DNA of 64,000 nt, taken from NCBI GenBank assembly GCA_934233745.1, contig CAKQGN010000001.1, positions 397,566 through 461,565 on the forward strand. Direction: 5' to 3'. Both the position numbers and the translations under genes were made by a program. This stretch comes from an uncultured Clostridia bacterium (GTDB taxonomy: Bacteria; Bacillota; Clostridia; Christensenellales; CAG-917). The notes under the pieces are model-generated. The model had not been told where the DNA came from. It saw only the letters and a program-made list of their open reading frames with translations, and made no database searches. Positions 6,684 through 64,000 of the stretch are shown here, one piece after another (the first letter of the stretch is position 1; each line of letters opens with the position of its first letter).

Positions 6684-7047
6684 TATTCGAAGACGGAATT
6701 GGAGTCGCAAGGCGACGACCGTAGCGAGCGCCGAGCTTGACGGTTGTACCGTCCGACTGCGCCATGTTGTTGCGTAGCCGGCGCACAAAGGACGGTGGCA
6801 TAATAAGAGAAATGTCCCTATCTATGCGAGAGCCGAGTGTGTCCCCACGCGAAGCGGACGCCGTGGGTACCCTTTTAAGGGGGAACGGCGGTATGGGCGC
6901 GACGCGTTAAGCAACACATCCAGTGAATGTGTTGTAGCCAAAGCGAACGAGGCGGATTGCGGTGCGCAAACGCCGAAGTCCAAACACGTGAGGAAGGGGG
7001 GCATTGCAATTTAAAAGTGCACGGCGTTCACCTTTGTAGAGAAAGAA
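6684..7047 (+). repeat. structured interspersed element, copy 1 (long form with the optional domain)
   Basis: Shares the blocks GAGCGCCGAGCTTGACGG, GTGGCATAA, CTATCTATGCGAG.GCCGAGTGT, CCCACGCG.AGCGGACGCCGTGGG, GGGGGAACGGCGGTA, AAACACGTGAGGAAGGGGG and TTGTAGAGAAAGAA with five other copies. Confidence 0.85.
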
Positions 7048-8220: not shown

Positions 8221-8513
8221 TCTTATTAACGCAATGTGTTTATTCGGAGTGCGAGCCGCAAGGCGGCGAGAAAAGCGAGCGCCGAGCTTGATGGATAGTA
8301 CAAGCGACTGCGCCGTGTTGTTGCGTAGCTGGCGCACAAAGCGCAGTGGCATAACAAGGGGACGATACCTATTTATGTGAGTGCCGAGTGTTGCCCCACG
8401 CGGAGCGGACGCCGTGGGTTCCCTTTCAAGGGGGAACGGCGGTAGGGGAAACACGTGAGGAAGGGGGACATGGAATTTATAGTTCACGCCGCCCAACTCT
8501 TGTAGAGAAAGAA
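8221..8513 (+). repeat. structured interspersed element, copy 2 (short form)
   Basis: Same conserved blocks as copy 1 but lacks the 88-nt optional domain. Occupies most of the 388-bp ruvA-ruvB gap. Confidence 0.85.
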
Positions 8514-9630: not shown

Positions 9631-9985
9631 CGAGACGGAACACGAGCCGCAAGGCGGCGAGAAAAGAGAGCGCCGAGCTTGACGGACAGTACAAGCGACT
9701 GCGCCTTTTGGGTGCGAAGCTGGCGCACAAAGCGCAGTGGCATAAATAGAGAAATGTCCCTATCTATGCGAGTGCTGAGTGTTGCCCCACGCGGAGCGGA
9801 CGCCGTGGGTTCCCTCAAAGAATGCAGAGGGGGAACGGCGGTATGGGCGCGACGCGTTAAGCAACACATCCAGTGAATGTGTTGTAGCCAAAGCGAACGA
9901 GGCGGATTGCGGTGCGCAAACGCCGAAGTCCAAACACGTGAGGAAGGGGGAATATTAAATTTAAGACCCGCCGTTCACTTTGAAA
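9631..9985 (+). repeat. structured interspersed element, copy 3 (long form)
   Basis: Same blocks as copy 1, including the optional domain at 9844-9931. Fills the ruvB-queA gap. Confidence 0.85.
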
Positions 9986-48306: not shown

Positions 48307-48365
48307 TTGCGACTTAACTAATTATGCAAAATGTATTAAAAATCGATTTTTTGCAGTCAAACCTA

Positions 48366-48394
48366 TTGCAAAGTCGCACGCGCGATGTTATAAT
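48366..48394 (+). promoter_or_regulatory. strong sigma-A-type promoter (TTGCAA-17 nt-TATAAT, TG-extended) whose spacer is a GC-rich alternating tract
   Basis: TTGCAA at 48366-71, spacer AGTCGCACGCGCGATGT and TATAAT at 48389-94, 62 nt upstream of the ATG at 48456. Confidence 0.6.
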
Positions 48395-48455
48395 TATTGA
48401 GTATATTGAGAAAGTATGTACGCATGCTTATGCGCGCACGCACGCAAGGAGAGAA

Positions 48456-50246
48456 ATGAATTCCACAGCATACGCAAAAAGGACGCTATACAAACCTATC
48501 GATTTCTTCTTCCGCGGAGTGGCAGACACTTCGGGCAAGACGAAAAAGATTGCGTTTGTCGATGCGTTTCAAGTTCTGAACGATCGTTATCTCGGCAGAA
48601 TGAGCGTATGCAATTATTTTTACATTGCGGAAGGCTCCGTGCGCATCAATGAACTCAACATCATCGCCCTTGAAGAACTTGTCAATTACGACCTCGTTAT
48701 GAAGGAAAATTTCCTTATTCCCGATGTCACCTACAATTTGCCGTTGTCCACTCGTTTTTTGGAAAATGACAAAGATTTTGATTTGCTTGTCGATGCGCTC
48801 AAAGATTTGGGCTACAAAAAGGGCGGTTTGGTTATTTCGTTTTTCGTATCGTCTTTGACAAAATTGGACAAAGACGGAAAGGCAAGATACAATCGTTTGC
48901 GCAAAGCGGGCTACAAGATTTGCGCCACGGCTTTTGGCGAGGACTACAACTCGCTCGATATTTTTGCCGATTTCAATTTTGATTATCTCAGATGTGAAGC
49001 GCAGTATTTCGACACCGACAAGAACAAGAAAAAAGTGCTTGCGATGCTCATAGGTTTTTGCAAAGCCAACAAAATCGGTTTCATAATGGAAGGCGTGGAC
49101 TCGCCCGGTCAGTATTCGCGCTTCAAACGCGAAGGCGTAAAACTTATGACGGGCAGAGGAGTATCCAAACTTTCGCGTTGGGTGACCAACGAGTTTTTGG
49201 GACTCAAAGATCCCGAAGGCGAAAAGAAAGAGCAATATCTCAAGAAACTTCAAAAGGTTCTCGACGCCAAAGAAAAGGCGGAGCAAGCCGAGCTTGAAGC
49301 GTTGCGCAGGGCAGCGATAGAAAAGGCAAAAGCAACCGAAGGCGAGAAGGTTATGCCTTCGGCACCTCGTCCCGAACTTGCCAAGTCGCCCTATCAGGTG
49401 CGTCTTGAACAGCAAAAGCTGAGCGCAAAGAAAGCGACCGAGGAGAGATTGCAAGCGCAGGCGAAACTTGTCGAGCAGGATCCGAAAGAAACTGAGGAAA
49501 GAGAAAAGAAACTCATCACCGAGATGTCGCGTATGCGCTATGAAGGTGACGTGCAAAGCGCGCTTGCGTTGTCTTTCGCATCGCAAAAGAAGAGCGAACT
49601 CGGCATAGACAGACCGTTTGAACATAAGACCGAAAAGGTTGAACAAAACGCAGCCTCGGAAGAAGAAAAACCGCAACCGCAAAGTGAAACCATAGTCAAA
49701 GAAGAGGAAAACAGCGTTGCGGCTCCCGTCCGTCCAGAAAAACCGTCGGGATTTACAGCCCACAAGAAACCCAAGAGAATCAAAGCGGACTTTGACAAAG
49801 AGGAAAAACTTTTCAATGAATACAAGTCCGACAGTCTTTTCGGCGGGCTGGGTATGGATTCGGGCATGAAAGGCTTTGGCGTCACGATGCACATTGCGAG
49901 CAAGGATAAGGACGAGCCCGATCTTGTCGGAACATACAACGACAAAGGTCAATGGGTTGACGAGGACGGCAACGTGTTCAACGGCTATTTCGATGTCGAA
50001 GGCAACTGGGTTGAATACGAGCAGTTTGACGTGAGCAAGGAAGGCTCTTACAACGAGAACGCGCAGTGGGTTGACAAAGACGGCAACGTTTATGACGGCT
50101 ACTTTGACGAGGAGGGCAGGTGGATAGATTACACCTACACCGATCCGAGCGGCGAAATCGTCGACAACGGCTACTTTGACGATAAGATAGGCAAATGGGT
50201 TCCGTACGGTTACTTTGCAGGGGACGGGACATACCACAAATTTTGA
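48456..50246 (+). CDS. degenerate EAL-domain protein with a Lys/Glu-rich coiled-coil region and C-terminal GYFD-x-EG-x-W repeats
   Basis: EAL-fold landmarks are recognisable but mutated. EAL->DAF, DDFGTGYSS->TAFGEDYNS, EGVE->EGVD. RBS AAGGAGAG before the ATG at 48456. Confidence 0.7.
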   Translation: MNSTAYAKRTLYKPIDFFFRGVADTSGKTKKIAFVDAFQVLNDRYLGRMSVCNYFYIAEGSVRINELNIIALEELVNYDLVMKENFLIPDVTYNLPLSTRFLENDKDFDLLVDALKDLGYKKGGLVISFFVSSLTKLDKDGKARYNRLRKAGYKICATAFGEDYNSLDIFADFNFDYLRCEAQYFDTDKNKKKVLAMLIGFCKANKIGFIMEGVDSPGQYSRFKREGVKLMTGRGVSKLSRWVTNEFLGLKDPEGEKKEQYLKKLQKVLDAKEKAEQAELEALRRAAIEKAKATEGEKVMPSAPRPELAKSPYQVRLEQQKLSAKKATEERLQAQAKLVEQDPKETEEREKKLITEMSRMRYEGDVQSALALSFASQKKSELGIDRPFEHKTEKVEQNAASEEEKPQPQSETIVKEEENSVAAPVRPEKPSGFTAHKKPKRIKADFDKEEKLFNEYKSDSLFGGLGMDSGMKGFGVTMHIASKDKDEPDLVGTYNDKGQWVDEDGNVFNGYFDVEGNWVEYEQFDVSKEGSYNENAQWVDKDGNVYDGYFDEEGRWIDYTYTDPSGEIVDNGYFDDKIGKWVPYGYFAGDGTYHKF

Positions 50247-50526: not shown

Positions 50527-50867
50527 AAACTTATTCAAGGCGTACTTATAAACGGAATGTGTATATTCAGGGTGCGAGCCGCAACGGCGGCGAGAAAATG
50601 GAGCGCCGAGCTTGACGGATAGTACAAGCGACTGCGCCGTGTTGTTGCGTAGCTGGCGCACAAAGCGCAGTGGCATAATGAGGAAAATGCCCCTATCTAT
50701 GCGAGTGCCGACTGTCTCCCCCGCGAACGATGGATAATCTTGTAGAGAATTGCCTCTATTTGAGTGGTGGGAGAAAAGCCCGAAAGGGAAAGAGGGGGCG
50801 CATCTAATTTAGAGTTCACGCCATTCAACTTTTGTAGAGTGCAAACAAAACACGTGAGGAAGGGGGA
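50527..50867 (+). repeat. structured interspersed element, copy 4 (5' half intact, 3' half rearranged or degenerate)
   Basis: The 5' blocks are conserved up to CTATCTATGCGAGTGCCGA. After that the order of the TTGTAGAG and CACGTGAGGAAGGGGGA modules is permuted. Confidence 0.75.
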
Positions 50868-50924
50868 AGCGGATAAACATAAAATCCCGCACCGTTATCC
50901 TGATAAAAACCAACATATAAAAAT

Positions 50925-52046
50925 ATGAGCGAACAAGAAATCAACAACACCCAAGCAGAACAGACGACTGCGCAAGACGAACAATCCGACCAAACCGAGC
51001 AATCGGCATCGGAGCAATCTGCCAAGTCGAAAAAGTCTGCAAAAGGCGCAAAGGGCGACAAAAAATCCGCCGCTGCGACCAAAAAGGAGCAAGCCCGCTT
51101 GAAAAAAGAGTGGGAGGATTCTATCGTTGCTTCAAAAAAGGTCAAGCATGAGGAAATGCGTCGCAAGCTCAAACGCGCCATGCTGATCATGCTTGTTTTT
51201 TCGCTTATCGTGACGTCGGTTGTGTACATTATGCTTTTGTTTGTTCAAGAAAACAACATTCGCATCACGGCGAGCAACCGCAACAAAGAAAAATCAATCT
51301 CGTTGTCGATGGACAACGATTTTTGGACGCCGTACCTCAATGCCGAAGGCCCGGAGCATATGTGGAACATTAGTTATGATGTCCGCTACAAAACCGAGCA
51401 ACTTGACACGATTGCCAAGGTTGCCGAAATGCTTGAGGCGGACGAAGTGCAACTTGGCACACAAAACGGCGAGCAATTTATCAGATTTGTTTTCATGCTC
51501 AAAAACACGGGCAACGAGGCGGCGCACATCAACTATGAGATGACTCTTGAATTTGACAAGCACAAACTTCACGACGCCGTTCGCGTCACATGGGGCGAGA
51601 GCTTCAAGAATCCGAATGCAGAGCTTGAGAAAAAAACCGATGTAAAGGTTTATGCCGCTTTGTCCAAAAACGAGCGTCTTGCCGGTTCAAACATCAATAT
51701 CAAGGGTGACGGCACGCCTCGCACGGCGCAAGAGGGCTTCATCGAGTATGTTGCCTATCCCGGCGACTTTACCACACAGGTTCACAAGGGCGACAAGTAT
51801 TATTACGTCAAGGATTATGAATCCACGGTTGACATTGACAAGCGATTTGACGATATGGCAAACGGCTTTGTTGCCACGACGCCGTTCTTTTCGGACGAAT
51901 ATGTATTCCAACGCGAAGCGGACATGGCAAAAGGTGACATTATGTACTGTTATGTGAGCATCTGGCTTGAGGGGAGTGACTTTGAATGTATCGATGACCG
52001 ATTGGGAGGTTATTGCAAGATTGGCTTGAACTTCTATGCAACCTAA
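50925..52046 (+). CDS. membrane-anchored paralog of the two SipW-signal proteins (acidic/Lys-rich cytoplasmic N-terminus, one TM helix, exported domain)
   Basis: The C-terminal motif YCYVSIWLEGSDFECID..GGYCKIGLNFY parallels YYITMEIWIEGTDAECIQ..GGGITLKMEFVY in the 53502 gene. Confidence 0.6.
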   Translation: MSEQEINNTQAEQTTAQDEQSDQTEQSASEQSAKSKKSAKGAKGDKKSAAATKKEQARLKKEWEDSIVASKKVKHEEMRRKLKRAMLIMLVFSLIVTSVVYIMLLFVQENNIRITASNRNKEKSISLSMDNDFWTPYLNAEGPEHMWNISYDVRYKTEQLDTIAKVAEMLEADEVQLGTQNGEQFIRFVFMLKNTGNEAAHINYEMTLEFDKHKLHDAVRVTWGESFKNPNAELEKKTDVKVYAALSKNERLAGSNINIKGDGTPRTAQEGFIEYVAYPGDFTTQVHKGDKYYYVKDYESTVDIDKRFDDMANGFVATTPFFSDEYVFQREADMAKGDIMYCYVSIWLEGSDFECIDDRLGGYCKIGLNFYAT

Positions 52047-53022: not shown

Positions 53023-53107
53023 ATGGAGTGAAGAGGGCAGACGGTTGCGCAAATTCGCAATTTTACACCCCACCCGATAGACAAGTGGAATATTCCGATT
53101 CTTCCTT

Positions 53108-53201
53108 GTCATTGCGAGGAGCAACGAATGTTGCGACGTGGCAATCTAGCGGAGCGAAATGCGCCTGTCGGCTGGATTCCCACGCTGTCGCTCTGAATGA
53201 C
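53108..53201. repeat. composite REP-like palindrome (near-identical to 52338-52430 and, inverted, to 57647-57740)
   Basis: GTCATTGCGAGGAGCAACGAATGTTGCGACGTGGCAATCTAGCGGAGCGAAATGCGCCTGTCGGCTGGATTCCCACGCTGTCGCTCTGAATGAC. Confidence 0.8.
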
Positions 53202-53351
53202 AAAATGGTGGGACACCCACACCCGAAAGCACAACGTGTGACACCCCGTCCCCATGTGTCATCCTGAGGCACGAAGTGCCGTGAGGATCTCCTGGAAAGG
53301 AAACGATGTGAATTGTCGCAAGTACAGCGCACAACAATCCGATTCTTCCGT

Positions 53352-53400
53352 GTCATTCCGAGGGAGCGGAGTGACCGTGGGAATCCAGCCGTAAGGCGCA
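53352..53400 (+). repeat. REP-like unit (GTCATTCCGAGGGAGCGGAGTGACCGTGGGAATC + CAGCCGTAAGGCGCA)
   Basis: Same family. Part of a ~165-bp module that is also present at about 52240-52345. Confidence 0.7.
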
Positions 53401-53587
53401 CCCACCCGAACGCACAACAAAACAAAAACAAAAAAATAAAAAAATAAAATTTGGGATAAAGTTTTTTAGAAAGGGGCTTTATTCCGATAAGGAGAAAAAC
53501 GATGAAAAAGAAAGGTTTGATTATTTCAACAGTCGTGATGGTTGTTGTCTTGATTGCATCTCTCACCACCGCTACATACGCTTGGTT
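53401..53587 (+). repeat. outer inverted repeat, left arm (5' UTR, RBS and first 29 codons of the 53502 gene)
   Basis: About 187 nt, essentially identical (one A-run indel) to the reverse complement of 57443-57632. Confidence 0.9.
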
Positions 53588-54764
53588 CTCGGCGCAAGCA
53601 AGTGCGACAGTTGATGATCTAGCATTCACAACCAAGGCTGCAGATGGTCTTCAAATCGCTATGAAAAATGCTGGCTCAACAACTGCAGAATATGTTTCGG
53701 GCAACCTTACATACAACCCTGCTGCAACCGATAATACCTATTGGGAAGGCGATGTGAATGATTGGGGTACTAACCTAGGTTTTGATGCTATTGATATTGG
53801 TGAAATTACGGATGCAGTAACCTATCATACTACTCAAAATTATCCTGTATTTAGCGGATATACACCCGTTGCTGTTTTAGCGGTTAATACCACATATTAC
53901 ATTCCCACAAAACATGAAAATATTACTACTAAAGACGGATTTGATGCAATCTCAGGAGCAAAGTATTATGAGAAAGAATCTAAATATGTTCTTGCCAATA
54001 AATTAATTGATAGCGTAACAACTTACTACACAGTCAAGTCAACAAAAACGGGAAAAACAGCAGCAGAGCTTCCCAATAACTATACAGCAAATTCTTGGTG
54101 GGCAAGAGCTACAAGCACTGCGACTATAACACCTGAAGGCATTGAGAATAATGGCCAATTCCTCGTGCCTACTGGTTATGATGATTCTATTAACCCAATC
54201 GGTTATGCAAGTGCGGTTAGAAATGGCAATTATTACTATTTGACAATGGCTGTAAAACCAGTTACTGACGTTGACAAACTTGGTTTGAAGATGACATTTG
54301 GTGCCACACAAAATAAAGCAGCACAAACACTTGATACCTCTGTTACTCAAGGCAATCTAAATGGTGCTATGGCAGCTGCAACTCGTTGTAATATTCTTTT
54401 TGAAAACAGCGCACTTCAAACTGCAAATAAGTCAAAACAAAATATTGCTCCGTTCAGCGCATTCTATGTTGATGGAACATCGCTGAAAAAATATACAGGT
54501 GCAGATGATGCTTCGTTTAAGAGCAATGAAGATGGTGCATACAATGCTACTGGTGTATATGAATATGTGCTGTCAGACACTTCCGTCAAGGCTGGTACGA
54601 TCTACTATATCACTATGGAAATTTGGATTGAAGGTACAGATGCTGAATGTATTCAAGAAACTGCAGGGGGAGGCATAACACTCAAAATGGAATTTGTCTA
54701 TGACAAAAATGGAAATACCCCGGTTGCTGACTTCGCTGCTGGAACTACTGTTACATGGGCATAA
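53502..54764 (+). CDS. secreted protein with a SipW-dependent (TasA/camelysin-class) signal peptide, paralog A
   Basis: MKKKGLIISTVVMVVVLIASLTTATYAWFSA.. fits the SipW-cognate signal class (..T.AYF[ST]). A SipW-type peptidase gene lies 4 kb downstream. The body is more AT-rich than the backbone. Confidence 0.75.
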   Translation: MKKKGLIISTVVMVVVLIASLTTATYAWFSAQASATVDDLAFTTKAADGLQIAMKNAGSTTAEYVSGNLTYNPAATDNTYWEGDVNDWGTNLGFDAIDIGEITDAVTYHTTQNYPVFSGYTPVAVLAVNTTYYIPTKHENITTKDGFDAISGAKYYEKESKYVLANKLIDSVTTYYTVKSTKTGKTAAELPNNYTANSWWARATSTATITPEGIENNGQFLVPTGYDDSINPIGYASAVRNGNYYYLTMAVKPVTDVDKLGLKMTFGATQNKAAQTLDTSVTQGNLNGAMAAATRCNILFENSALQTANKSKQNIAPFSAFYVDGTSLKKYTGADDASFKSNEDGAYNATGVYEYVLSDTSVKAGTIYYITMEIWIEGTDAECIQETAGGGITLKMEFVYDKNGNTPVADFAAGTTVTWA

Positions 54765-54780
54765 TTCCAATACACTTGAT

Positions 54781-54853
54781 AAAAATTACAACAATATACA
54801 AGTCCCGATTCACACCGAATCGGGACTTGTGTTTTTTTTATCCCTCTTGAATT
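54781..54853 (+). repeat. inner inverted repeat, left arm; contains the terminator of paralog A (54798-54839) and the -35 box of the NTase promoter
   Basis: The 73 nt match the reverse complement of 56164-56235 with two differences. Hairpin ACAAGTCCCGATT-CACACC-GAATCGGGACTTGT plus T8. Confidence 0.9.
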
Positions 54854-54875
54854 GTCCACCCGTCAATGTTATAAT
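54847..54875 (+). promoter_or_regulatory. promoter of the NTase gene (TTGAAT-17 nt-TATAAT, TG-extended)
   Basis: TTGAAT at 54847-52 (inside the inner IR) and TGTTATAAT at 54867-75, about 30 nt before the ATG at 54906. Confidence 0.55.
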
Positions 54876-54905
54876 TTTGGTAGAAAGCCACAAAGGAGGA
54901 ATAAT

Positions 54906-55550
54906 ATGGCATATCATTTTGCAAAGAAAGCAGATGTTAAAGAAACCAACAAATGGTGTGTTGAAATTTTGAATGAAGTGCAAACCATTGTAAAAGATTA
55001 TTTTACATTTTCGTATGAATTGATTGGAAGTGGTGGCAATCGCCTTGTAACATACAATGACGGTAATCCATTTGATTTGGACTACAATATTATTATCCAA
55101 AAAGACAAGCAACATTTGCTCCAACAGCCAGACCAAATAAAAGATATATTCTTCAAAGCGTTTCAAAAGACTTTTTGCAAGAATATCAAAGATTTCAACC
55201 GAACAAACTATATAAAAATCAACAATTCAAAATCAGTTATAACTGTTAAAAATATTGAATATGGGAATTTGGCATTTTCTTTTGATGTCGCAATTTTGAG
55301 GCAACACCCCAACGGATATTTTGAAAAAATAATTTTTGATAAAAAGAATAATCGCTATATCTGGAATCAAGTCAAGGACTCAAAAGATTTGAACGATAAA
55401 GTTTTGCATGTAAAACAAAGACCTGGCTGGAACGCTGTGAGAGAACGCTATCTTGAATTGAAAAATAATAGTTTGCGAAACAATGATGAAACAAAATCGT
55501 TTTCGATATTCATTCAGGTCATAAACGAGTTATATCAACATCTTGAATAA
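54906..55550 (+). CDS. Pol-beta-superfamily nucleotidyltransferase (MNT/SMODS-like core with a ~100-aa C-terminal extension)
   Basis: The G-S...D-x-D signature ELIGSGGNRLVTYNDGNPFDLDYNII and a third acidic residue in AFSFDVAIL. RBS AAAGGAGGA before the ATG at 54906. Confidence 0.6.
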   Translation: MAYHFAKKADVKETNKWCVEILNEVQTIVKDYFTFSYELIGSGGNRLVTYNDGNPFDLDYNIIIQKDKQHLLQQPDQIKDIFFKAFQKTFCKNIKDFNRTNYIKINNSKSVITVKNIEYGNLAFSFDVAILRQHPNGYFEKIIFDKKNNRYIWNQVKDSKDLNDKVLHVKQRPGWNAVRERYLELKNNSLRNNDETKSFSIFIQVINELYQHLE

Positions 55551-55608: not shown

Positions 55609-56100
55609 TTAATTAAAAAGATTATTGTAACGTTGTTGCTCATCTTTCATAATTTTTGCAAGGTCTTCATTTATCAATGACATTTCTTCAATTAAATTTT
55701 CCAATCTTTCATAATAGAATGTTGGATTTGTTTCTATCAAATTCATTTGCAAATCTTCCTTAAACAATTGGTGTACAACATAATTGCGTTCATCACACAT
55801 TTCGTCCAATCTGTTTTGAGATTGCTGGACAAAGTAACCGTGTTCTTGTGCCTTTTTGAGGCCATATCCAAGCGGCTTACATTCGAGTATATGATACCAT
55901 TTTTCTGCTTTTTGACTTATGTTATTAAATTTTTTATAAGACATATTTTTGCTCTTATAGAAATTTTCACACAGTTCGTCTAGTGCCAATATATTGGCAA
56001 TGTTGTACTCAATCATTTGCGACAAATGCACCACAAGCCCAACCTTGCCCAACAAAGTAAAATATTGTTCTTCTTGCAATGAAAATTGTTGTTTACTCAT
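55609..56100 (-). CDS. HEPN-domain protein (R-x4-H motif)
   Basis: ..MCDERNYVVHQLF.. carries the RNxxxH HEPN signature in a predicted all-alpha, 163-aa protein. MSKQQF.. start at 56100 behind GAGGAG. Confidence 0.6.
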   Translation of the reverse strand: MSKQQFSLQEEQYFTLLGKVGLVVHLSQMIEYNIANILALDELCENFYKSKNMSYKKFNNISQKAEKWYHILECKPLGYGLKKAQEHGYFVQQSQNRLDEMCDERNYVVHQLFKEDLQMNLIETNPTFYYERLENLIEEMSLINEDLAKIMKDEQQRYNNLFN

Positions 56101-56141
56101 AACTAACTCCTCAAAAAATATCTCCCATATGTGGTGAGGAA

Positions 56142-56170
56142 ATTTTAGCACAACAACAGGCAAAATTCAA
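56142..56170 (-). promoter_or_regulatory. promoter of the HEPN gene (TTGAAT-17 nt-TAAAAT on the minus strand), mirror image of the NTase promoter
   Basis: The -35 box at 56165-56170 lies inside the right inner IR. The -10 box is at 56142-56147. Confidence 0.5.
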
Positions 56171-56235
56171 GAGGGATAAAAAAACACAAGTCCCGATTCG
56201 GTGTGAATCGGGACTTGTATATTGTTGTGATTTTT
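56164..56235 (-). repeat. inner inverted repeat, right arm; contains the terminator of paralog B (56178-56219)
   Basis: Reverse complement of 54781-54853. Confidence 0.9.
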
Positions 56236-56253
56236 TTCAAATCTTTTGAATTA

Positions 56254-57528
56254 TCAGCCACCAACTGCTTGAATTGTAAGCTCTTTTGCATCTTTGCCTT
56301 GAGTTTGCACAACAACTTTTGTTGTTCCGGCTGTTGCAGTCACAGTACCAGTAGAGGTGAATTTGCCATTTGACCATGTTCCAGCAATGGTTTCTTCGCC
56401 AATTTTGACAGTCGTATTTGTTGCAGTATAGGTTGTCTCTCCGCCTTCAATTTCAAGTTTATTGTCAGCAGTAAGTTTTGCAGATGTCGCTTTAGTCTCT
56501 GCATTTGCACAGTCAAAGAACATTTTTATATCACCAGATGCCGTTTTGCCTTGGCCGTTACAGTCAGTATCTGCACCTGCCATATAAATAACAACCTCCA
56601 CTTGCGTAATCTTATTTACTTCAGTATCAAGTCCGCTAATAACACAAGCCATAGAACCTGTTGGTAGTGTTCCACCTATTGCGGTAGAATATGCAGTTGC
56701 AATAGTGCCTGTCACATTAGTTGTAATATCACCTTTTTTTGTTGTGCCTTTGTTTGTGCCATAAACGTCGACTTCTGTCCAATTCGGTTCAGCTGCGCCG
56801 TCTTTCCTTACTCGATAAGCAACGTGTATTGAAGCAAGTATGCCAAGAGTGCTAGTGTCTGAAGAAGGTGAAATCATGACAACAAAATTGTTTCTATCAA
56901 GTGCCTTTGTCGGTTGAACGCCAAGAATGAAATGCGCATAATCGCCCGCACCTTCACCATTAATATTTGCTCTAGCCAACGATTGGTTTGTCAAATCATT
57001 CGACCCCTGTGCCTTGTTTGCAGCTATGACAGCTGTTTTGCCTGTCGTTGTATTGCCATATGCGATTGAACCATCTTGGTTTGGAGTATCTGTAACCCAA
57101 AAACGCGTATTTGCTGTTGTTGCTTTTGATGCATTATCCTCAGATGTTGCCTCGGCGGAAGTAGTTAAACCAACAGCTTTTGCTTGTGAACCCCAATTGA
57201 TATTGTGTTCAAGAGTTGCGCTTAACCCATCGGAACCACCACTCCACGAGCCAGGATTATTGATTTTCCCTGGTCCTGAATCGTTTGTTGTACCAGTTGT
57301 AAAAGTAACAGAACCAGTTGTAAATTCTCCAGCTGAGGGATTTTGGCTTAATGAATATTCTTTTTTCATACCAATGTTAACAGCATTTGAAGATACGACT
57401 GAAACATTGAAACCAGATATTTCAGTTTTGTTCGATGCCGTAAACCAAGCGTATGTAGCGGTGGTGAGAGATGCAATCAAGACAACAACCATCACGACTG
57501 TTGAAATAATCAAACCTTTCTTTTTCAT
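56254..57528 (-). CDS. secreted protein with a SipW-dependent signal peptide, paralog B
   Basis: The first 29 aa are identical to paralog A (MKKKGLIISTVVMVVVLIASLTTATYAWF). The body is divergent and Thr/Gly/Ala-rich. C-terminal region ..VEVVIYMAGADTDCNGQG..GDIKMFFDC. Confidence 0.75.
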   Translation of the reverse strand: MKKKGLIISTVVMVVVLIASLTTATYAWFTASNKTEISGFNVSVVSSNAVNIGMKKEYSLSQNPSAGEFTTGSVTFTTGTTNDSGPGKINNPGSWSGGSDGLSATLEHNINWGSQAKAVGLTTSAEATSEDNASKATTANTRFWVTDTPNQDGSIAYGNTTTGKTAVIAANKAQGSNDLTNQSLARANINGEGAGDYAHFILGVQPTKALDRNNFVVMISPSSDTSTLGILASIHVAYRVRKDGAAEPNWTEVDVYGTNKGTTKKGDITTNVTGTIATAYSTAIGGTLPTGSMACVISGLDTEVNKITQVEVVIYMAGADTDCNGQGKTASGDIKMFFDCANAETKATSAKLTADNKLEIEGGETTYTATNTTVKIGEETIAGTWSNGKFTSTGTVTATAGTTKVVVQTQGKDAKELTIQAVGG

Positions 57529-57632
57529 CGTTTTTCTCCTTATCGGAATAAAGCCCCTTTCTAAAAAACTTTATCCCAAATTTTATTTTTTTATTTTTTT
57601 TGTTTTTGTTTTGTTGTGCGTTCGGGTGTGGG
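57443..57632 (-). repeat. outer inverted repeat, right arm
   Basis: Reverse complement of 53401-53587. Confidence 0.9.
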
Positions 57633-57646
57633 TATCCCACCATTTT

Positions 57647-57740
57647 GTCATTTAGAGCGATAGCGTGGGAATCCAGCCGACAGGCGCATTTCGCTCCGCT
57701 AGATTGCCACGTCGCAACATTCGTTGCTCCTCGCAATGAC
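57647..57740. repeat. composite REP-like palindrome (inverted copy of 53108-53201)
   Basis: GTCATTTAGAGCGATAGCGTGGGAATCCAGCCGACAGGCGCATTTCGCTCCGCTAGATTGCCACGTCGCAACATTCGTTGCTCCTCGCAATGAC. Confidence 0.8.
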
Positions 57741-57840
57741 ACGTGGGGGTGGGGTGTAAAATTGCGAATTTGCGCAAAAATCGTCGCTGTGGCAACTGCA
57801 ACGCTCACAGGTGCGCATTGCCGAGAGCCACGCTAGGTTT

Positions 57841-58146
57841 TTTCACAGGTAAAAGTACGTGTAATTTGAATTGCAATTTCCCCTTTCCTCAGGTGTTTTC
57901 CCCCTCGCCGTTCCCCCTTAAAATGGAACCCACGGCGACCGCGGAGCGGGGGACAACACTCAACGCTCGCATAGATAGGGCATTTCACTCATTATGCCAC
58001 TTCGCCTGCGTGGCGGCTCCGCAACAGAATGCCACGCATTCTCGTACTAACCGTCAAGCTCGGTGTTCGCTACGGTCGTCGCCTTGCGACTCCAATTCCG
58101 TCTTCGAATAGGCATATACCGTGCATGAGAACGCTTTGAATAAGTT
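57841..58146 (-). repeat. structured interspersed element, copy 5 (short form, minus strand, upstream of paralog B)
   Basis: The reverse complement carries all conserved blocks. The variable helix is TGCGTGGC/GCCACGCA. Confidence 0.85.
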
Positions 58147-58202
58147 TTTGAAAATAGAAAAATCAAAAATTGTAATAAAAAAACCCTACTGAATAGTAGG
58201 GT

Positions 58203-58233
58203 TTCAATTTGTTGGCGGAGAAGCAGGGATTTG
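58203..58233 (-). pseudogene. 31-nt duplicate of the tRNA-Ser 3' end and flank, with its own terminator hairpin (58180-58203)
   Basis: TTCAATTTGTTGGCGGAGAAGCAGGGATTTG is identical to 58387-58417. Confidence 0.8.
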
Positions 58234-58396: not shown

Positions 58397-58488
58397 TGGC
58401 GGAGAAGCAGGGATTTGAACCCTGGCTACGATTCACTCGTACTACTCCCTTAGCAGGGGAGCCCCTTCGGCCTCTTGGGTACTTCTCC
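58397..58488 (-). tRNA. tRNA-Ser (anticodon GCT), long variable arm, CCA encoded
   Basis: The reverse complement is GGAGAAGTACCCAAGAGGCCGAAGGGGCTCCCCTGCTAAGGGAGTAGTACGAGTGAATCGTAGCCAGGGTTCAAATCCCTGCTTCTCCGCCA. Anticodon arm CTCCC-CTGCTAA-GGGAG. Confidence 0.85.
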
Positions 58489-58899
58489 AAAAAAATAATA
58501 AACAGAATATTTGTTTGTCAAGGGGCATTTTGCCGATTGACTTGGTTATAATAGCACATGATTTGAAACATTGTCAATGATTTTTGTATAAATGCGACGA
58601 TGGTTTTGCGCCGTATTGGCGCATGTCATGCAGAATAATTGTCAAACTTGGTGTTTTGTCATATTTTTGCTGTTGACACGGGCGGGGTTTTCAGCTAAAA
58701 TACATAGTGTATAGTTATAACTATACGCTACAGCAAAATCATTCGAGCAAAGCGGCGCGATTGCGCGTTCCGTTGAAGGGCAATAAGCATGGCTCGGTGA
58801 CGTCAATAGTCATTCGTTTTCTTCTCGGCTGCGCCGTTGGCGCGGAGTGGGGCAATAAGTCGTGAGTCGAAAGTGAAGAAGCATCATAAGGAAGACAGT

Positions 58900-59877
58900 A
58901 TGAACATCAAGGAAAAACTCGCGTCCTCTTCCAAAAAGGAACGCACTCCTCAGCAACAAAAGGCCATGACCATTCTCAATTGGGTGGCAACCGCAGTTTG
59001 CATTATTGTAATTATTTTTGCGCTGATTGTGGCGATTTTTACCATTGCCGGCTCTACAAGCAAGGACCATCTCACAAGATTCGGTGACAAGATTTATCTC
59101 AACGTCGCGTCCGACTCAATGGAGCCGACTTTCAGCACCAGCGACGTGATTATCGCAAATGCGTTCAACTATGAAAAACAACTTGCAGAACTAAAAGTCG
59201 GACAAGTCGTCACTTTCAAGACTACGGTGCGCTCGGGCGGAAATACCTATGAGGTTTTCAACACCCACAGAATCGTCAGAATCAACTTTGAAGAAAACGG
59301 CACGACCGTAAGAAACTTCACCACGCGCGGCGACAATTCAAAATCCGCAGACAAGGATAATTCCAAACTTTCATGGAAAGAAGCCATTGTTCAAAACACG
59401 CTTGGTCTCACTGAAACAGTGGCTCCGTCCAACATCGTTGCCACTTGGGGCAGTGTGGACGAAAACGGCAATTTCACGTCAGGCAAGATGCTCAAGGGCG
59501 TAGGCGGATTTGCCAACTTCATTCAAGACACAGAGCACTTTGGCGCAAACCATAAGATGCGTTTCTTCTGCATCGTGGTTTTGCCGCTTATTTTGCTGTT
59601 TGTGATTTACGCATTTGTTTTGGTGCGTACTCTCGTCATTGCAAAACTCGAAAATCAACGCAAGGTGCAATCCGAGCAAGTCATCACGGTGGACAGCCTC
59701 TCCGACGAGGAAAAACGCCGTCTTGCCCAAGAGTACCTGGCGTCTTTGCAGGCGCAGACAGGCGGTGATACGTCCGATACAAAAGCCGATGACGCTCAAA
59801 CCGACGAAACTTCAACCGACAAGTCGGACAGTTCGGACGTCAGCGACGACAATGCAAGCGAGGATAAACCCGAATAA
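58900..59877 (+). CDS. sipW: signal peptidase I, SipW (archaeal/ER) type, with a C-terminal TM helix and an acidic tail
   Basis: Catalytic Ser box ASDSMEPTF, His box THRIV, and TRGDNS..D. ATG at 58900 behind AAGGAAG. Confidence 0.85.
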   Translation: MNIKEKLASSSKKERTPQQQKAMTILNWVATAVCIIVIIFALIVAIFTIAGSTSKDHLTRFGDKIYLNVASDSMEPTFSTSDVIIANAFNYEKQLAELKVGQVVTFKTTVRSGGNTYEVFNTHRIVRINFEENGTTVRNFTTRGDNSKSADKDNSKLSWKEAIVQNTLGLTETVAPSNIVATWGSVDENGNFTSGKMLKGVGGFANFIQDTEHFGANHKMRFFCIVVLPLILLFVIYAFVLVRTLVIAKLENQRKVQSEQVITVDSLSDEEKRRLAQEYLASLQAQTGGDTSDTKADDAQTDETSTDKSDSSDVSDDNASEDKPE

Positions 59878-60076: not shown

Positions 60077-61591
60077 ATGAACATAAATTTAGTGTTTGAA
60101 TTTCTCAAAGCCTTCCTCGGCGCATTTTACGACAAGGGTATCGGCAGTATTTTCTGGGGTTTTCTGCATATCTTTTACAACGAAGGGTATGCGGACGCTT
60201 TCAAGAATTACACCGAGTACTTCGGCGCAGGGGAGTGGGCTGTCGCAATAATTTTTATCATTCTTATCGTCGCGGTAATTGTTGCGATTATCGTTTTGAT
60301 TGCGCTCGGAATCCGCAAACTCGCAAGACTTCAAAAAGCCAAAGTCTTGCCCCAGGACCTCGTTGAAGAATGCGCAAACCTCAAAAAGCAAATCATCAAA
60401 ATGTCGGCAGAGAAAGACCGTATTCTCGGTATGCGCGTGAGCGATATCGGCACGTATGAGGGCGAAGAAGGAGAAGATGGCGAAAAGAAAGAAGAAAAAT
60501 CTCCGACAGGCGAATCCCGCTTTTACAAGCTCACCGAAATCGACAAGATTTACGAAAATTACGTTCCGCCCGTATACGACGATTCTATTACGCTGCCCGA
60601 GCTGTGCGATCGCTTCCGCAACTTTGCCTGCTCGCGCATGCGCCTTTACTACAATCCGCGTATCATAAGACTGTTTATTGCAGGTATGTCAACATCTCGT
60701 CTTATGATTTTGCAAGGTATTTCCGGTACAGGTAAAACCTCGCTTCCGCACGCTATGGGTATTTTCCTCAACAACCCGGCGACGATTGCGTCCGTTCAGC
60801 CGTCCTGGCGTGACCGTACCGAGCTTTTCGGATACTTCAACGAATTTACAAAGCGTTTCAACGAAACCGAGGTTTTGAAGAAAATGTACGAGGCTACCTG
60901 GAACGACCAAATCTACCTCACCGTTCTCGACGAAATGAACATCGCGCGTGTCGAGTACTATTTTGCCGAAATGTTGTCAATTCTCGAAATGCCTTCACGC
61001 GACGAGTGGATTGTCGACCTCGTGCCGTCGGGTTGGCCGAACGACCCCAAACATATCGACAAAGGGCGTTTCCAACTTCCGCAAAACATGTGGTTTATCG
61101 GCACGGCAAACAACGACGACTCGACGTTTGCTATTTCGGATAAAGTCTACGACCGTGCTATGCCTATCAACATCAACAGCAAGGGTGTGCCTTTCGACGC
61201 TCCTTGGGCGGACAATATTTTCATCAGCTACAAGCATCTTGAAGCGATGTTCAAAGAGTCGCAAGAGACATACAAGGTGTCGCAGGAAGTGCTTGACAAA
61301 GTCAATAAATTGGACGACTACGTTATCGAGCATTTCCGCCTCGCGTTCGGCAACCGTATCGTGAAGCAGCTCAAAGAGTTTGTCCCGTCATATGTCGGAT
61401 GCGGCGGAACGGAGCTTGACGGACTCGACTATGTGCTTTGCAACAAGATTTTCCGTAAGTTCGAATCACTCAACTTGTCATACATCCGCGACGAAATCGA
61501 CGGTTTGATTTTGTATTTGAGCGAGCTTTTCGGAGAGGAAAACATGCAAGAGAGCAAAGAATACATCAACAGACTTAAAAAATTGTTCTAA
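60077..61591 (+). CDS. membrane-anchored McrB-like AAA+ (AAA_5) NTPase
   Basis: TM helix (WAVAIIFIILIVAVIVAIIVLIALGI), a coiled/acidic linker and Walker A LQGISGTGKTS. Walker B plus McrB-type segment LTVLDEMNIARVEYYFAEMLSILE, then FIGTANNDDS..DKVYDRAMPI. Confidence 0.75.
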   Translation: MNINLVFEFLKAFLGAFYDKGIGSIFWGFLHIFYNEGYADAFKNYTEYFGAGEWAVAIIFIILIVAVIVAIIVLIALGIRKLARLQKAKVLPQDLVEECANLKKQIIKMSAEKDRILGMRVSDIGTYEGEEGEDGEKKEEKSPTGESRFYKLTEIDKIYENYVPPVYDDSITLPELCDRFRNFACSRMRLYYNPRIIRLFIAGMSTSRLMILQGISGTGKTSLPHAMGIFLNNPATIASVQPSWRDRTELFGYFNEFTKRFNETEVLKKMYEATWNDQIYLTVLDEMNIARVEYYFAEMLSILEMPSRDEWIVDLVPSGWPNDPKHIDKGRFQLPQNMWFIGTANNDDSTFAISDKVYDRAMPININSKGVPFDAPWADNIFISYKHLEAMFKESQETYKVSQEVLDKVNKLDDYVIEHFRLAFGNRIVKQLKEFVPSYVGCGGTELDGLDYVLCNKIFRKFESLNLSYIRDEIDGLILYLSELFGEENMQESKEYINRLKKLF

Positions 61592-61606
61592 TTCTACACT
61601 TGTTTG

Positions 61607-61950
61607 TAGACGGAACGCGAGCCGCAGGAGGCGAGAAAGCGAGCGCCGAACTTGACGAACAGTACGAGTGAACGGGCGAGTGTGGATTTTTTCGCCCGTG
61701 AACGAGTGGCATAATGAGTGAACGATACCTTTCTATGTGAGAGCCGAGTGTTGCCCCACGCGAAGCGGACGCCGTGGATTCCCTCAAAGTATGCAGAGGG
61801 GGAACGGCGGTATGGGCGCGACGCGTTAAGCAACACATTCGATGAATGTGTTGTAACCAAAGCGAACGAGGCGGATTGCGGTGCGCAAACGCCGAAGTCC
61901 AAACACGTGAGGAAGGGGGAAGTTTTAATTGTAACAAACGTGTCGGCGTG
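61607..61950 (+). repeat. structured interspersed element, copy 6 (long form)
   Basis: All blocks are present. The variable helix is ACGGGCGA/TCGCCCGT and the optional domain is at 61813-61900. Confidence 0.85.
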
Positions 61951-62070
61951 CGGGTGGGGCTTGCCCCACACCCCAATGAATAATTAGGGCGTGTAGCAAA
62001 ATACTACGTCTTAAAATTCCGCTTTATCAATCTATCGCCGGAGTGGAATATAAATAAATCTCATAAAAGT

Positions 62071-64000
62071 ATGGCAGACAACAAGATTACAAGAGAAGTG
62101 TACAGACAGTACGCAAATAAGATTGTTTCCGTCCTCAACAAAGAGGGCTTTTATGAGCAATTCAAAAAACGCGTCGACAAGGGCGCATCGAGCTTCAAAC
62201 TCGCAAAAAAACGCCTCGTTCAAGATATTTCGATAGACTGGATCGATACGATCGAAAGCATACTTCCCAATCTCGACACGATTGTACGCAACCCGAGAAA
62301 GTTTATCGTGCAGGAAGAGGATATTGTCGACGTATCGCTTGCAAGAAGTATATCGACAGAATCGGTCAAATACCTTGCCCAGCACACAAATATGATCTCG
62401 AAGGTCGATGAAAAAACAGGTGACGTTACTCCGTCGAAAATCCTCAATATCACAAAAGAGGAATCCTTTGAGATATACGAAAATCGCTTTATTTATACGC
62501 TTCTTTTGAAACTTAAAGACTTCGTAACCATGCGTTACGACAAGATTAAAAAGGCGTCGGCAACGCAGGACGTGCTGGAACTCGACATTGAATCGAGGTT
62601 CAATCTTCCGAGCAAGAAAATCACTTATAGAACGGAATATTTTGCTCAATTGAGTTTTGACGAAGTTATGCGCCTCGATCCCGACACTCTCACAAAAATC
62701 GAGAGAGTGGCAAAAATCGACCGCATTATAACCGACTTCTTGTCGTCGTCTTTTGCAAAATCCATGCGCAATTCGGCACCCGTGCGTCCGCCTATCATGC
62801 GTACAAACGTCATTCTGAAAGAGCCGAACTTCAAAAAAGCACTTACGCTTTGGCAGTTTGTCGAAACCTATCAGCAAACGGCAGGTTTTTCCACGTCCGA
62901 CGAAGTGGAAGATTATGAAATCGACAGCGAAAGCGAGCAACGTCTGAAAAGCATGATCACGCTCAACACGATGGTGTTTGAGAGTATGTACGATCAATGC
63001 GAAACCGATATGGATATGGAAGACAAGCAATTTGCAGACTTCCTCCGCGTCGGTCAGATGGATTTTGAAAAAGACAATATCGACCGCGACGAATACGCTC
63101 AAAAACTCGAAGAGCAAAAGGAAAACGAAGAAGAAAAAGACAATATCGAAGAGGTAAAGCCTCAGGAAGACGCGGAATCGGAAAAGGAAATTCCGCCCGA
63201 AACTCCTCCCGAAGAACAGGAACAGGAAGAAAAAGAGTCGGAAACTCCTCCCGAAATCGAAGAAAAAGAGATTGAAAAGCCTCAAGAAATAGAAAAAGAA
63301 GTCGTTGTCGAGCATCCCGTCGAAGTTGAGCGTTTCAAAGAAATGCCACCCAAAGCAGACCAGGAAGAAGTCGATCTCGAACCCGATGCGGAAAAATTCG
63401 ATCAGCATCTTTTCGAAGTGCGCAAAATCTTTAAGCGTCCCGACGACGACAAGATTAAGCAAGAAGAAATCATCAAAGCGCGCGACGCCATTGACCGCTG
63501 CTTGACCTCGTATCGTCGTATCAAACAAGAGGAACTCGACGAACGCGACAGACAAGAGCGTATACGCCGTCGCAAAGAGGATATCAAAAAGCGTGCGGAA
63601 GCGTTCAGAAAACAGCGCGAGGAGCTTGAAAAGAACATGGATTCTTCTCAGGATTCCGCATATTTCGGCATGGATCCGTTCTCCTTCCAAAAGGCTAAAA
63701 TTCAAGAGAAAAAACGCCTCGAAGAAGAAGCGAAGCGCAAAGAAGCGATCAAGTTCGACAAACACGAAAATCTCGAACTCGAAGACAAAAACACCGACGC
63801 CATCAACAAGTCCATCGACGAGATGGAAAAGGCTCGTCAAGAAAAAGCGTTGCGCGACCAAAGAATCGATCATACGCTCGATGCAATCGATTCGGTTATG
63901 CCCATCGAAGGCGATGTTTTGTCAAGCAGAAGAGCAAAATCAAAACTTCCGACCGAAAGTCAAATACAAAATGTTTCCCAAACCGAAACGCCTCGATCGG
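62071..64000 (+). CDS. large DUF2357/McrC-N-terminal-like protein with a >350-aa Glu/Lys-rich region (3' end outside the window)
   Basis: Not in the ORF track because there is no stop in the window. I translated frame 1 from ATG 62071 (MADNKITREVYRQY..) to 64000 and found no stop in the parts checked. Motifs FEIYENRFIYTLLLKL and NVILKEPNFKKALTLWQFVE resemble the DUF2357/McrC N-terminal half. Confidence 0.6.
   Translation, partial: MADNKITREVYRQYANKIVSVLNKEGFYEQFKKRVDKGASSFKLAKKRLVQDISIDWIDTIESILPNLDTIVRNPRKFIVQEEDIVDVSLARSISTESVKYLAQHTNMISKVDEKTGDVTPSKILNITKEESFEIYENRFIYTLLLKLKDFVTMRYDKIKKASATQDVLELDIESRFNLPSKKITYRTEYFAQLSFDEVMRLDPDTLTKIERVAKIDRIITDFLSSSFAKSMRNSAPVRPPIMRTNVILKEPNFKKALTLWQFVETYQQTAGFSTSDEVEDYEIDSESEQRLKSMITLNTMVFESMYDQCETDMDMEDKQFADFLRVGQMDFEKDNIDRDEYAQKLEEQKENEEEKDNIEEVKPQEDAESEKEIPPETPPEEQEQEEKESETPPEIEEKEIEKPQEIEKEVVVEHPVEVERFKEMPPKADQEEVDLEPDAEKFDQHLFEVRKIFKRPDDDKIKQEEIIKARDAIDRCLTSYRRIKQEELDERDRQERIRRRKEDIKKRAEAFRKQREELEKNMDSSQDSAYFGMDPFSFQKAKIQEKKRLEEEAKRKEAIKFDKHENLELEDKNTDAINKSIDEMEKARQEKALRDQRIDHTLDAIDSVMPIEGDVLSSRRAKSKLPTESQIQNVSQTETPRS

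Follow-up and report, generated by a model that had tools for sequence, protein, structure and literature searches.

A membrane-anchored McrB-like GTPase and its nuclease-less DUF2357 partner: a probable CoCoPALM-type locus among SipW peptidase and candidate fibre genes in Clostridia

Here we analyse a pair of neighbouring genes, a membrane-anchored McrB-like GTPase (gene 1) and its McrC-like partner (gene 2), at the end of a 64,000-nucleotide (nt) stretch of DNA from an uncultured Clostridia bacterium of the Christensenellales (contig CAKQGN010000001.1, positions 397,566 to 461,565), which we call the window. The closest described system is CoCoPALM, the name that Bell et al. (eLife 2024; PMC11090510) gave in one paragraph to a large clade of NxD GTPases whose analysis they deferred. 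In that description the GTPase is fused to an FtsB-like domain with a transmembrane (TM) segment and a coiled-coil, coiled-coils occur on both the McrB and the McrC homologues, and an association with signal-peptidase-family proteins was read as pilus assembly (PMC11090510). NxD is NxxD shortened by one residue, with a D or E as the next residue in most cases, and it marks a major non-canonical branch of McrB; the same paper equates DUF2357 with the N-terminal domain of McrC, which activates McrB (PMC11090510). In the literature that we searched, the name CoCoPALM is used for such a system only in the eLife article and its preprint, and no paper ties McrB to SipW or TasA. The supplementary text of PMC11090510 holds no CoCoPALM entries, and hence offers no published accession for comparison.

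The locus in the window is most plausibly of the CoCoPALM type (probability about 0.7), that is, an McrBC pair without DNA reading and cutting that forms part of a SipW-dependent extracellular fibre cluster. Taken by itself, membership in CoCoPALM rather than among restriction nucleases is very probable. The pair comprises the following features, given in window positions.

60077..61591, + strand: gene 1, McrB-like GTPase of the NxD type, 504 amino acids (aa) (open reading frame; PDB, hhalign and Pfam evidence)
60236..60316, + strand: single TM helix of gene 1, aa 54-80, followed by the basic stretch RKLARLQKAK (Kyte-Doolittle)
60716..60742, + strand: Walker A motif of gene 1, GISGTGKTS, aa 214-222 (family alignment A1)
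61109..61120, + strand: GTPase signature of gene 1, N345-N-D347-D348, NxD followed by an acidic residue (family alignment A1)
61592..62070, no strand assigned: non-coding spacer of 479 nt that includes one copy of a GC-rich repeat, about 315 nt long and dispersed over intergenic regions (repeat copies elsewhere in the window)
62071..64000, + strand: gene 2, McrC-like and DUF2357-only, cut by the window end (translation, Pfam)

The gene 1 protein consists of an amphipathic N-terminus (aa 1-53), the TM helix, a heptad and acidic linker that reaches to about aa 190, a GTPase core at about aa 195-410 and a helical C-terminal part. It carries the motifs GISGTGKTS, LDEMNIARVEYYFAEMLSILE and FIGTANNDDS..VYDRAMPI, from which the sequence-only reading of this DNA had assigned it an McrB/AAA_5 core, and that assignment holds. 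In a phmmer search of PDB sequences the protein matches only E. coli McrB (6hz4, 6ut6, 7vsr; E = 1e-7 to 2e-7, aa 195-406), Pfam AAA_5 matches all 19 members of a family alignment of gene 1 homologues at 33-66% identity (A1), and hhalign of the A1 profile with E. coli McrB gives a probability of 96.6% (E = 5e-10). The NCBIfam McrB model scores 32 bits (E = 5e-8), and because this is far under its cut-off of 637, gene 1 is a relative of McrB and not an McrB orthologue. The Walker A residues G214, G217, G219, K220 and T221, the Walker B residue D285, and R360 are invariant in A1, and E286 is nearly so. By itself the NNDD of the window is ambiguous, as it can be read as NxxD and aligns gap-free to the NTAD of E. 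coli. N345 and D347 are invariant in the alignment and position 348 is D, E or Q; because of this variation, the conserved aspartate is the third residue, which makes the signature an NxD variant.

A TM anchor takes the place that a DNA reader has in McrB, as the sequence-only reading had also proposed. The hydropathy scan finds a single strong hydrophobic 19-mer (aa 58-76, mean 3.85), and a hydrophobic segment stands at a similar place in 77 of 77 full-length homologues from other species (median start aa 59). The N-terminal 50 residues and the TM helix can be aligned between species at identities down to 33%, a conservation that rules out the helix being an artefact of a mis-called start. 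Domain searches of the N-terminus match no DNA-binding family. About 30 residues with a 3-4 hydrophobic spacing, seen by eye, follow the helix (L93, C97, L100, I104, M107, I114, V118), with aa 93-118 conserved, and an acidic linker then leads from this heptad stretch to the NTPase core, the linker as a whole being about 100 aa long.

The GTPase domain probably faces the cytoplasm with the N-terminus outside, a topology that follows from the positive-inside rule and from the architecture of one homologue. This protein (P0129, 682 aa, locus L097 at 744-2792) has a signal peptide, a Pro/Thr/Glu-rich ectodomain of about 280 aa and a TM helix before a GTPase core that is 59% identical to that of gene 1, and its gene is followed by a DUF2357 gene. 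By this architecture, some members of the family expose a substantial extracellular domain. The neighbourhoods of P0129 and of P0184, a relative without a TM helix that is discussed below, lie on contigs of 3-5 kilobases (kb) and are informative for architecture only.

Gene 2 begins at the ATG at 62071 and stays open for 643 codons to the end of the window. Its sequence includes EIYENRFIYTLLLKL and NVILKEPNFKKALTLWQFVE and then turns Glu/Lys/Pro-rich, and its kinship with DUF2357/McrC-like partners, which had been suggested from these N-terminal segments, is supported by a Pfam DUF2357 match of 35.6 bits (curated cut-off 23.3, E = 7e-9). The same domain is found in 22 of 22 gene 2 homologues from other species (best E = 2e-15). 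The missing C-terminus can be read because an identical gene 1 protein is encoded on 22 or more public contigs, drawn from human-gut metagenomes and metagenome-assembled genomes (MAGs); gene 2 is 979-983 aa long there, and its full length is 983 aa on one of these contigs (L001).

The conserved core of gene 2 spans about aa 1-300 (62071-62970), and between species only the first ~290 aa can be aligned (alignment A2). Its conserved residues include R73, R76, Y136-E137-N138-R139 and R239. Residues 301-640 contain 30% D+E and 19% K+R in long E/K/R-rich stretches, and the C-terminal third of the full-length protein includes two copies of VTPWG[ED]...KPKRKYTRKPK. This acidic and basic, low-complexity tail is probably helical or disordered, and KEKE-type tails occur in homologues such as that of locus L009. 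Homologues range from 362 to 1245 aa, and at 983 aa against a typical ~700 the protein of the window is unusually long.

Apart from DUF2357, the full-length protein matches no Pfam, NCBIfam or PADLOC model. No PD-(D/E)xK nuclease domain is found by Pfam and NCBIfam in the full 983 aa, which extends past position 64000 the absence that had been noted up to the window end. There is also no space for such a domain, because the core takes up about 290 aa and the shortest homologues, at 362-376 aa, add just a helical tail of ~80 aa. A degenerate nuclease concealed in the tail can be rejected as well, since the tails are unalignable, of low complexity and missing from these shortest homologues.

The surroundings of the pair are the deciding part of the argument. 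The window and the identical contigs have their genes in this order: the EAL-domain gene, a 373-aa membrane-anchored protein, two convergent genes for secreted proteins, tRNA-Ser, a SipW-type peptidase, gene 1, gene 2, a second SipW gene, comM, dprA and topA. The features upstream of the pair are as follows.

48324..50246, + strand: EAL-domain protein of 640 aa, head of the cluster (Pfam EAL, E = 1e-18)
50925..52046, + strand: membrane-anchored subunit paralogue of 373 aa, with a charged cytoplasmic N-terminus, a TM helix and an ectodomain that ends in WLEGSDFEC (open reading frame)
53502..54764, + strand: secreted β-rich protein of 420 aa, candidate fibre subunit (open reading frame, AlphaFold)
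56254..57528, - strand: second candidate fibre subunit, 424 aa, convergent with the 420-aa gene (open reading frame)
58397-58488, - strand: tRNA-Ser(GCT), located between sipW and the second subunit gene (ARAGORN; 54 bits in Rfam, E-value mode)
58673..58701, + strand: promoter-like site TTGACA-17-TAAAAT upstream of sipW, 11 of 12 positions (consensus scan only)
58900..59877, + strand: SipW-type (archaeal-type) signal peptidase I with a C-terminal TM helix and an acidic tail, directly upstream of gene 1 (NCBIfam; start taken as called on the identical contigs)

A family-profile scan over one genome per GTDB species finds that at least 597 genomes encode a gene 1 relative. The neighbourhood census covers the best 80 of these species representatives, in which hidden Markov models (HMMs) made from the window proteins were compared with six-frame open reading frames. 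These 80 belong to Christensenellales, Oscillospirales (including Ruminococcus flavefaciens MC2020, Ruminococcus sp. FC2018 and Acutalibacteraceae), Lachnospiraceae (including Eubacterium ruminantium FB3002) and a few Bacilli MAGs. The identity of the gene 1 protein drops with taxonomy, from 96-99% in Christensenella sp. UBA767 and Firmicutes bacterium CAG:238 to 60-72% in other Christensenellales and in Oscillospirales and ~53% in Ruminococcus and Lachnospiraceae.

Wherever a locus leaves room for it, an McrC-like gene nearly always lies directly downstream (71 of 75), so the pair does recur in other genomes as the sequence-only reading had required of a true module, and in several of the remaining loci (for example L017, L018, L020 and L022) a sipW or a subunit gene stands between the two. 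Among loci longer than 15 kb from other species, a SipW gene is present in 51 of 52, with two or more in 36 of 52; one or more genes of the subunit family occur in 49 of 52, and 38 of 52 encode an EAL protein. Typically, the genes are arranged as EAL, subunit, anchored paralogue, sipW, mcrB-like, mcrC-like and sipW, with nearly all genes on the strand of the McrB-like gene and one subunit-family gene inverted in a few loci, including the window. The same kinds of neighbours surround gene 1 homologues of 63-64% identity in other Clostridia. A reverse search that took the subunit gene as its starting point covered 20 metagenomic loci of 9 kb or more: the sipW-mcrB-mcrC block is present in 11, another seven are cut off before the block could be reached, and in two the subunit gene stands alone. 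The linkage of the pair to SipW peptidases and their probable substrates is tight and taxonomically broad.

The upstream SipW protein scores 51.1 bits against NCBIfam TIGR02228 (cut-off 51.85), with an E of 7e-13 for the SipW model, and the second one, of 235 aa and encoded just past the window after gene 2, reaches 90.5 bits with TIGR02228. Both have SxSMxPT, HRI and GDN motifs by eye. The two secreted proteins, which would be their substrates, both begin with MKKKGLIISTVVMVVVLIASLTTATYAWF, and cleavage of the subunits is predicted around ...TYA|WF. The signal peptide of the 420-aa protein runs to ...SLTTATYAWF, an end (T-Y-A-W-F) that we take to resemble the T-W-A-A-F of B. subtilis TasA, and the protein contains the C-terminal motif IWIEGTDAEC, which follows the family pattern W-[IL]-E-G-x-D-x-E-C. 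The family is hypervariable and diverges fast except in the signal peptide and the first ~90 residues. The first 29 residues of the 424-aa gene and its upstream region are the same as those of the 420-aa gene, and the mature parts are ~25% identical. An AlphaFold model of the 420-aa protein is all-β beyond an unstructured stretch at residues 1-39, with a pLDDT (predicted local distance difference test) score of 77.6 and a predicted template modelling (pTM) score of 0.77. The 373-aa paralogue is found by the same subunit-family HMMs and is kept beside the cluster in other species, and it is a candidate for the anchor or initiator of a fibre.

The two subunit genes share near-identical upstream regions, first 29 codons and 3' flanks, in the form of inverted repeats (53107-53593 with 57437-57741 at 97%, and 54768-54838 with 56178-56248 at 93%). 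Such a cassette-like arrangement could support recombination, inversion and antigenic variation. Between the two genes lie a 232-aa protein (54852-55550, + strand), in which a GS...DxD pattern like that of nucleotidyltransferases is visible by eye, and a 184-aa protein (55609-56163, - strand) that matches Pfam HEPN_RiboL-PSP under the cut-off (E = 4e-4); they may be a nucleotidyltransferase/HEPN pair of toxin-antitoxin type. This slot varies between strains and holds 23S_rRNA_IVP, DUF4238 or SecB-like genes in L002-L004.

The EAL protein at the head of the cluster appears catalytically degenerate by eye, with FQVLND in place of EALxR, TAFGEDYNS in place of DDFGTGYSS and DYLRCE in place of the KxD motif, and its long, charged C-terminal half contains repeated G-x-W-V-D/Y motifs. 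It may be a receptor for cyclic di-GMP (c-di-GMP) rather than a phosphodiesterase.

Set beside CoCoPALM as described, the locus shares the NxD McrB-like GTPase, the adjacent McrC (DUF2357) homologue and the signal-peptidase-family genes in the operon, and it has an N-terminal TM segment, followed by a short stretch of heptad-like spacing by eye, in place of a DNA reader and a partner with a charged extension. No finding contradicts its membership. Pfam reproduces the FtsB likeness of the N-terminus in only one of 19 family members. The copy in the window differs in the repeat-bearing spacer between the genes and in the unusual length of the partner.

With the classical McrBC system of E. coli K-12, the pair has in common the GTPase core (Walker A, Walker B and the asparagine/aspartate signature) and a downstream partner with the McrC N-terminal domain family. 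Gene 1, however, has a TM anchor, lacks the N-terminal DNA-binding domain and carries NxD instead of NxxD, gene 2 lacks the PD-(D/E)xK nuclease, and the neighbours are secretion and fibre genes rather than restriction-modification genes. The view that the layout is not that of a classical type IV restriction system is therefore sustained by the missing reader, the missing nuclease and the fibre-gene context. What had been built on that view, an envelope-associated defence or a DNA/phage-sensing system, is not supported, although the structural description beneath it holds.

A defence role would make the pair part of the McrBC/CoCoNuT lineage as a system for phage defence or abortive infection, in which the anchored GTPase senses infection at the envelope and acts through an effector other than PD-(D/E)xK, for example by remodelling the membrane or the surface. 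The ancestry of the pair in McrBC speaks for it, as do the hypervariability of the adjacent subunit genes and the nucleotidyltransferase-like/HEPN-like pair in the strain-variable slot beside them. So does the proximity to CoCoNuT (CnuB/CnuC), which belongs to the same NxD GTPase clade and in which McrC homologues often lack an active nuclease (PMC11090510); the closest relatives of gene 1 that have no TM helix are coiled-coil NxD GTPases of the CoCoNuT type, such as P0184 with 43% identity in the core. CoCoNuT GTPases, in contrast to gene 1 with its linker of ~100 aa after a TM helix, have soluble coiled-coils of hundreds of residues and no TM segment, and the HEPN or other nucleases and RNA-binding domains of CoCoNuT operons are not conserved in the cluster of the window. 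The HEPN-like frame at 55609-56163, which lies on the opposite strand, is an insert that varies between strains and not a conserved nuclease of the cluster.

The proposed search of defence models gave one partial match. The GTPase core matches the PADLOC model PDC-M26A (E = 2e-36), over profile positions 313-436 of 724, while gene 2 matches no PADLOC model and the other components of PDC-M26 find no match. PDC-M26 is an unvalidated PADLOC candidate that the searched literature does not mention. The PDC-M26A match goes back to an ancestry that gene 1 shares with coiled-coil NxD GTPases such as P0184, and it is not evidence for defence. The pair has no fused nuclease, HEPN domain or other effector and no conserved one alongside it, the synteny with SipW and secreted proteins is steady (51 of 52 loci), identity tracks taxonomy, and the flanks are those of a housekeeping region rather than an island, with nusB, xseA and ispA upstream (by eye from translations) and comM, dprA and topA downstream (Pfam domain matches). 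Because of the conserved cluster of SipW and secreted substrates, the missing effector and the identity that follows taxonomy, the defence interpretation is probably wrong, and we regard it as unlikely for this locus.

The better comparison for the neighbours is with the tapA-sipW-tasA operon of B. subtilis and the archaeal AbpA pili. There, too, a dedicated SipW-type peptidase stands beside secreted β-rich (jelly-roll-like) proteins, and the likeness to the TasA operon extends to signal peptides with T-[WY]-A-x-F-like ends and to one membrane-associated accessory paralogue. The loci described here differ in having two or more SipW paralogues and many subunit paralogues, whereas the TasA operon and AbpA systems lack a cytoplasmic NTPase. 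The subunits also differ from TasA in that no sequence similarity to TasA or Peptidase_M73 is detectable, and the fold match is weak.

If the locus is a fibre cluster of the CoCoPALM type, a mechanism can be outlined. The GTPase would form an McrB-like ring at the cytoplasmic face of the membrane, and the DUF2357 domain of the partner would switch on GTP hydrolysis by the ring, as in McrBC. The ring would couple hydrolysis to the fibre subunits by way of its TM helix and the short N-terminus outside the cell, with the charged tail of the partner perhaps contributing. The step acted on could be the processing, polymerisation, anchoring or wall passage of SipW-cleaved subunits, and the EAL-like protein may add a c-di-GMP-linked control. 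The likely role of the pair is that of a GTPase switch or motor at the cytoplasmic face that would assemble, anchor or regulate a SipW-processed surface fibre. A more specific and clearly more tentative possibility is that the pair is the energy-coupling membrane core of an undescribed class of Gram-positive fibre, with SipW-processed jelly-roll subunits, an anchored paralogue and EAL-like c-di-GMP control.

Several points weigh against the fibre reading, in addition to the PDC-M26A match. The class itself rests on one paragraph of one paper and its members are known from sequence. The McrC link of gene 2 consists of Pfam DUF2357 and gene adjacency only, because the fold and profile comparisons with McrC are empty: profile comparison with E. 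coli, which succeeds for McrB and gene 1, returns no match between A2 and McrC by hhalign (E = 0.47), and Foldseek searches of PDB and BFVD with the model of the core find nothing at E ≤ 0.001 and no McrC. A search of PDB sequences with the A2 profile has no match either. For residues 1-310, the quality of the AlphaFold model is moderate (pLDDT 72.6, pTM 0.49); its confidence is lowest at aa 78-130, yet these residues are among the most conserved of the protein, a pattern that would suit a segment that takes on order only when a partner binds.

For the subunits, neither Pfam nor NCBIfam matches the two proteins, and a PDB sequence search with the subunit profile finds nothing. The top-probability PDB match of the 420-aa model in Foldseek is the TasA fibre 8aur, but this match is weak (probability 0.84, E = 5e-3, template modelling scores 0.20/0.33). 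A TasA-like donor-strand fibre is a plausible lead for these proteins, not a result. The main mechanistic puzzle is that, to our knowledge, TasA/SipW donor-strand fibres assemble without an energy source or a cytoplasmic NTPase.

This puzzle is one of the arguments for a fibre-associated regulator in place of a motor, that is, a membrane-bound, GTP-dependent switch or scaffold for SipW activity, subunit expression or variant switching, possibly downstream of c-di-GMP. Such a regulator would draw on the same synteny evidence as the CoCoPALM-type fibre reading, and it fits an EAL-like protein at the head of the cluster (38 of 52 loci) and the long, variable, disordered charged tail of the partner, which is typical of scaffolds. 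However, the EAL domain is degenerate by eye, neither protein of the pair has a DNA-binding or signalling output domain, and no observation separates a switch from a motor. We give this alternative about the same low weight as defence.

The FtsB homology of the N-terminus is a further weak point, and it bears on a third alternative, in which the pair acts in cell division or at the envelope independently of the fibre genes and its FtsB-like N-terminus is meaningful while the adjacency to sipW is historical. The architecture of a TM helix followed by a short heptad helix would suit such a role, and Bell et al. call this N-terminus FtsB-like (PMC11090510). The one Pfam match among the 19 family members, to DivIC, is nonetheless weak (E = 0.012), no division or wall-synthesis genes are conserved nearby, and linkage to sipW and subunit genes across Clostridia orders and some Bacilli is hard to explain by chance. 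We find this explanation very improbable, and the CoCoPALM-type fibre cluster is the account that we retain.

The spacer of the window is long, as the McrB-like and McrC-like genes of other species are mostly separated by 8-100 nt. Further copies of its repeat lie at 9633-9964, 6792-7000, 8245-8448, 50574-50869 and 57925-58001 (- strand) of the window, and one is found between dprA and topA (L004, 18724-19028). In strains with an identical McrB-like protein, the spacer repeat has the same orientation in L001, L003 and L005, the opposite orientation in L002, L004, L007 and L008 (82-86% identity) and an internal deletion in L006. The repeat is inserted between genes 1 and 2 and is not part of the module itself, and it looks like a mobile element of the miniature inverted-repeat transposable element (MITE) kind that has repeatedly targeted the spacer. 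Rfam scans of 61592-62070 have no match, and a consensus scan of the + strand of the same interval finds no promoter-like or terminator-like site.

The tRNA-Ser gene is missing from the Rfam output for the whole window in gathering mode, presumably through filtering. A 36-nt direct repeat of its 3' part at 58198-58233 may be the remnant of an integration site.

The existence of the class was already known, since CoCoPALM was named, though left uncharacterised, in PMC11090510. Relative to that paper, the analysis adds the full nuclease-less partner, a test of NxD on a family alignment, the topology support from P0129 and a counted neighbourhood census, together with the secreted-protein family, the anchored paralogue, the EAL gene and the cultured carriers. 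Because these carriers exist (R. flavefaciens MC2020, Ruminococcus sp. FC2018 and E. ruminantium FB3002), the fibre hypothesis is directly testable. The locus also holds a warning for annotation, in that matches to McrB, DUF2357 or PADLOC candidates do not on their own amount to defence.

If the pair should prove to be an energy-coupling core, it would be the first NTP-dependent machine for assembling or anchoring a TasA-like or donor-strand fibre, and the motor of a restriction enzyme would have been reused for cell-surface biogenesis, in a locus that gut and rumen Clostridia, Christensenellales and Ruminococcus among them, carry widely. If the broader reading is right, McrBC-type GTPases are not just restriction motors, and one large branch of them builds or controls surface fibres at the membrane. 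At least 597 species-level genomes, from Clostridia and some Bacilli, have a member of this branch, among them those of the abundant human-gut and rumen lineages Christensenellales, Ruminococcus, Acutalibacteraceae and Lachnospiraceae, groups in which adhesion, biofilm and fibre-degrading lifestyles matter and are poorly understood.

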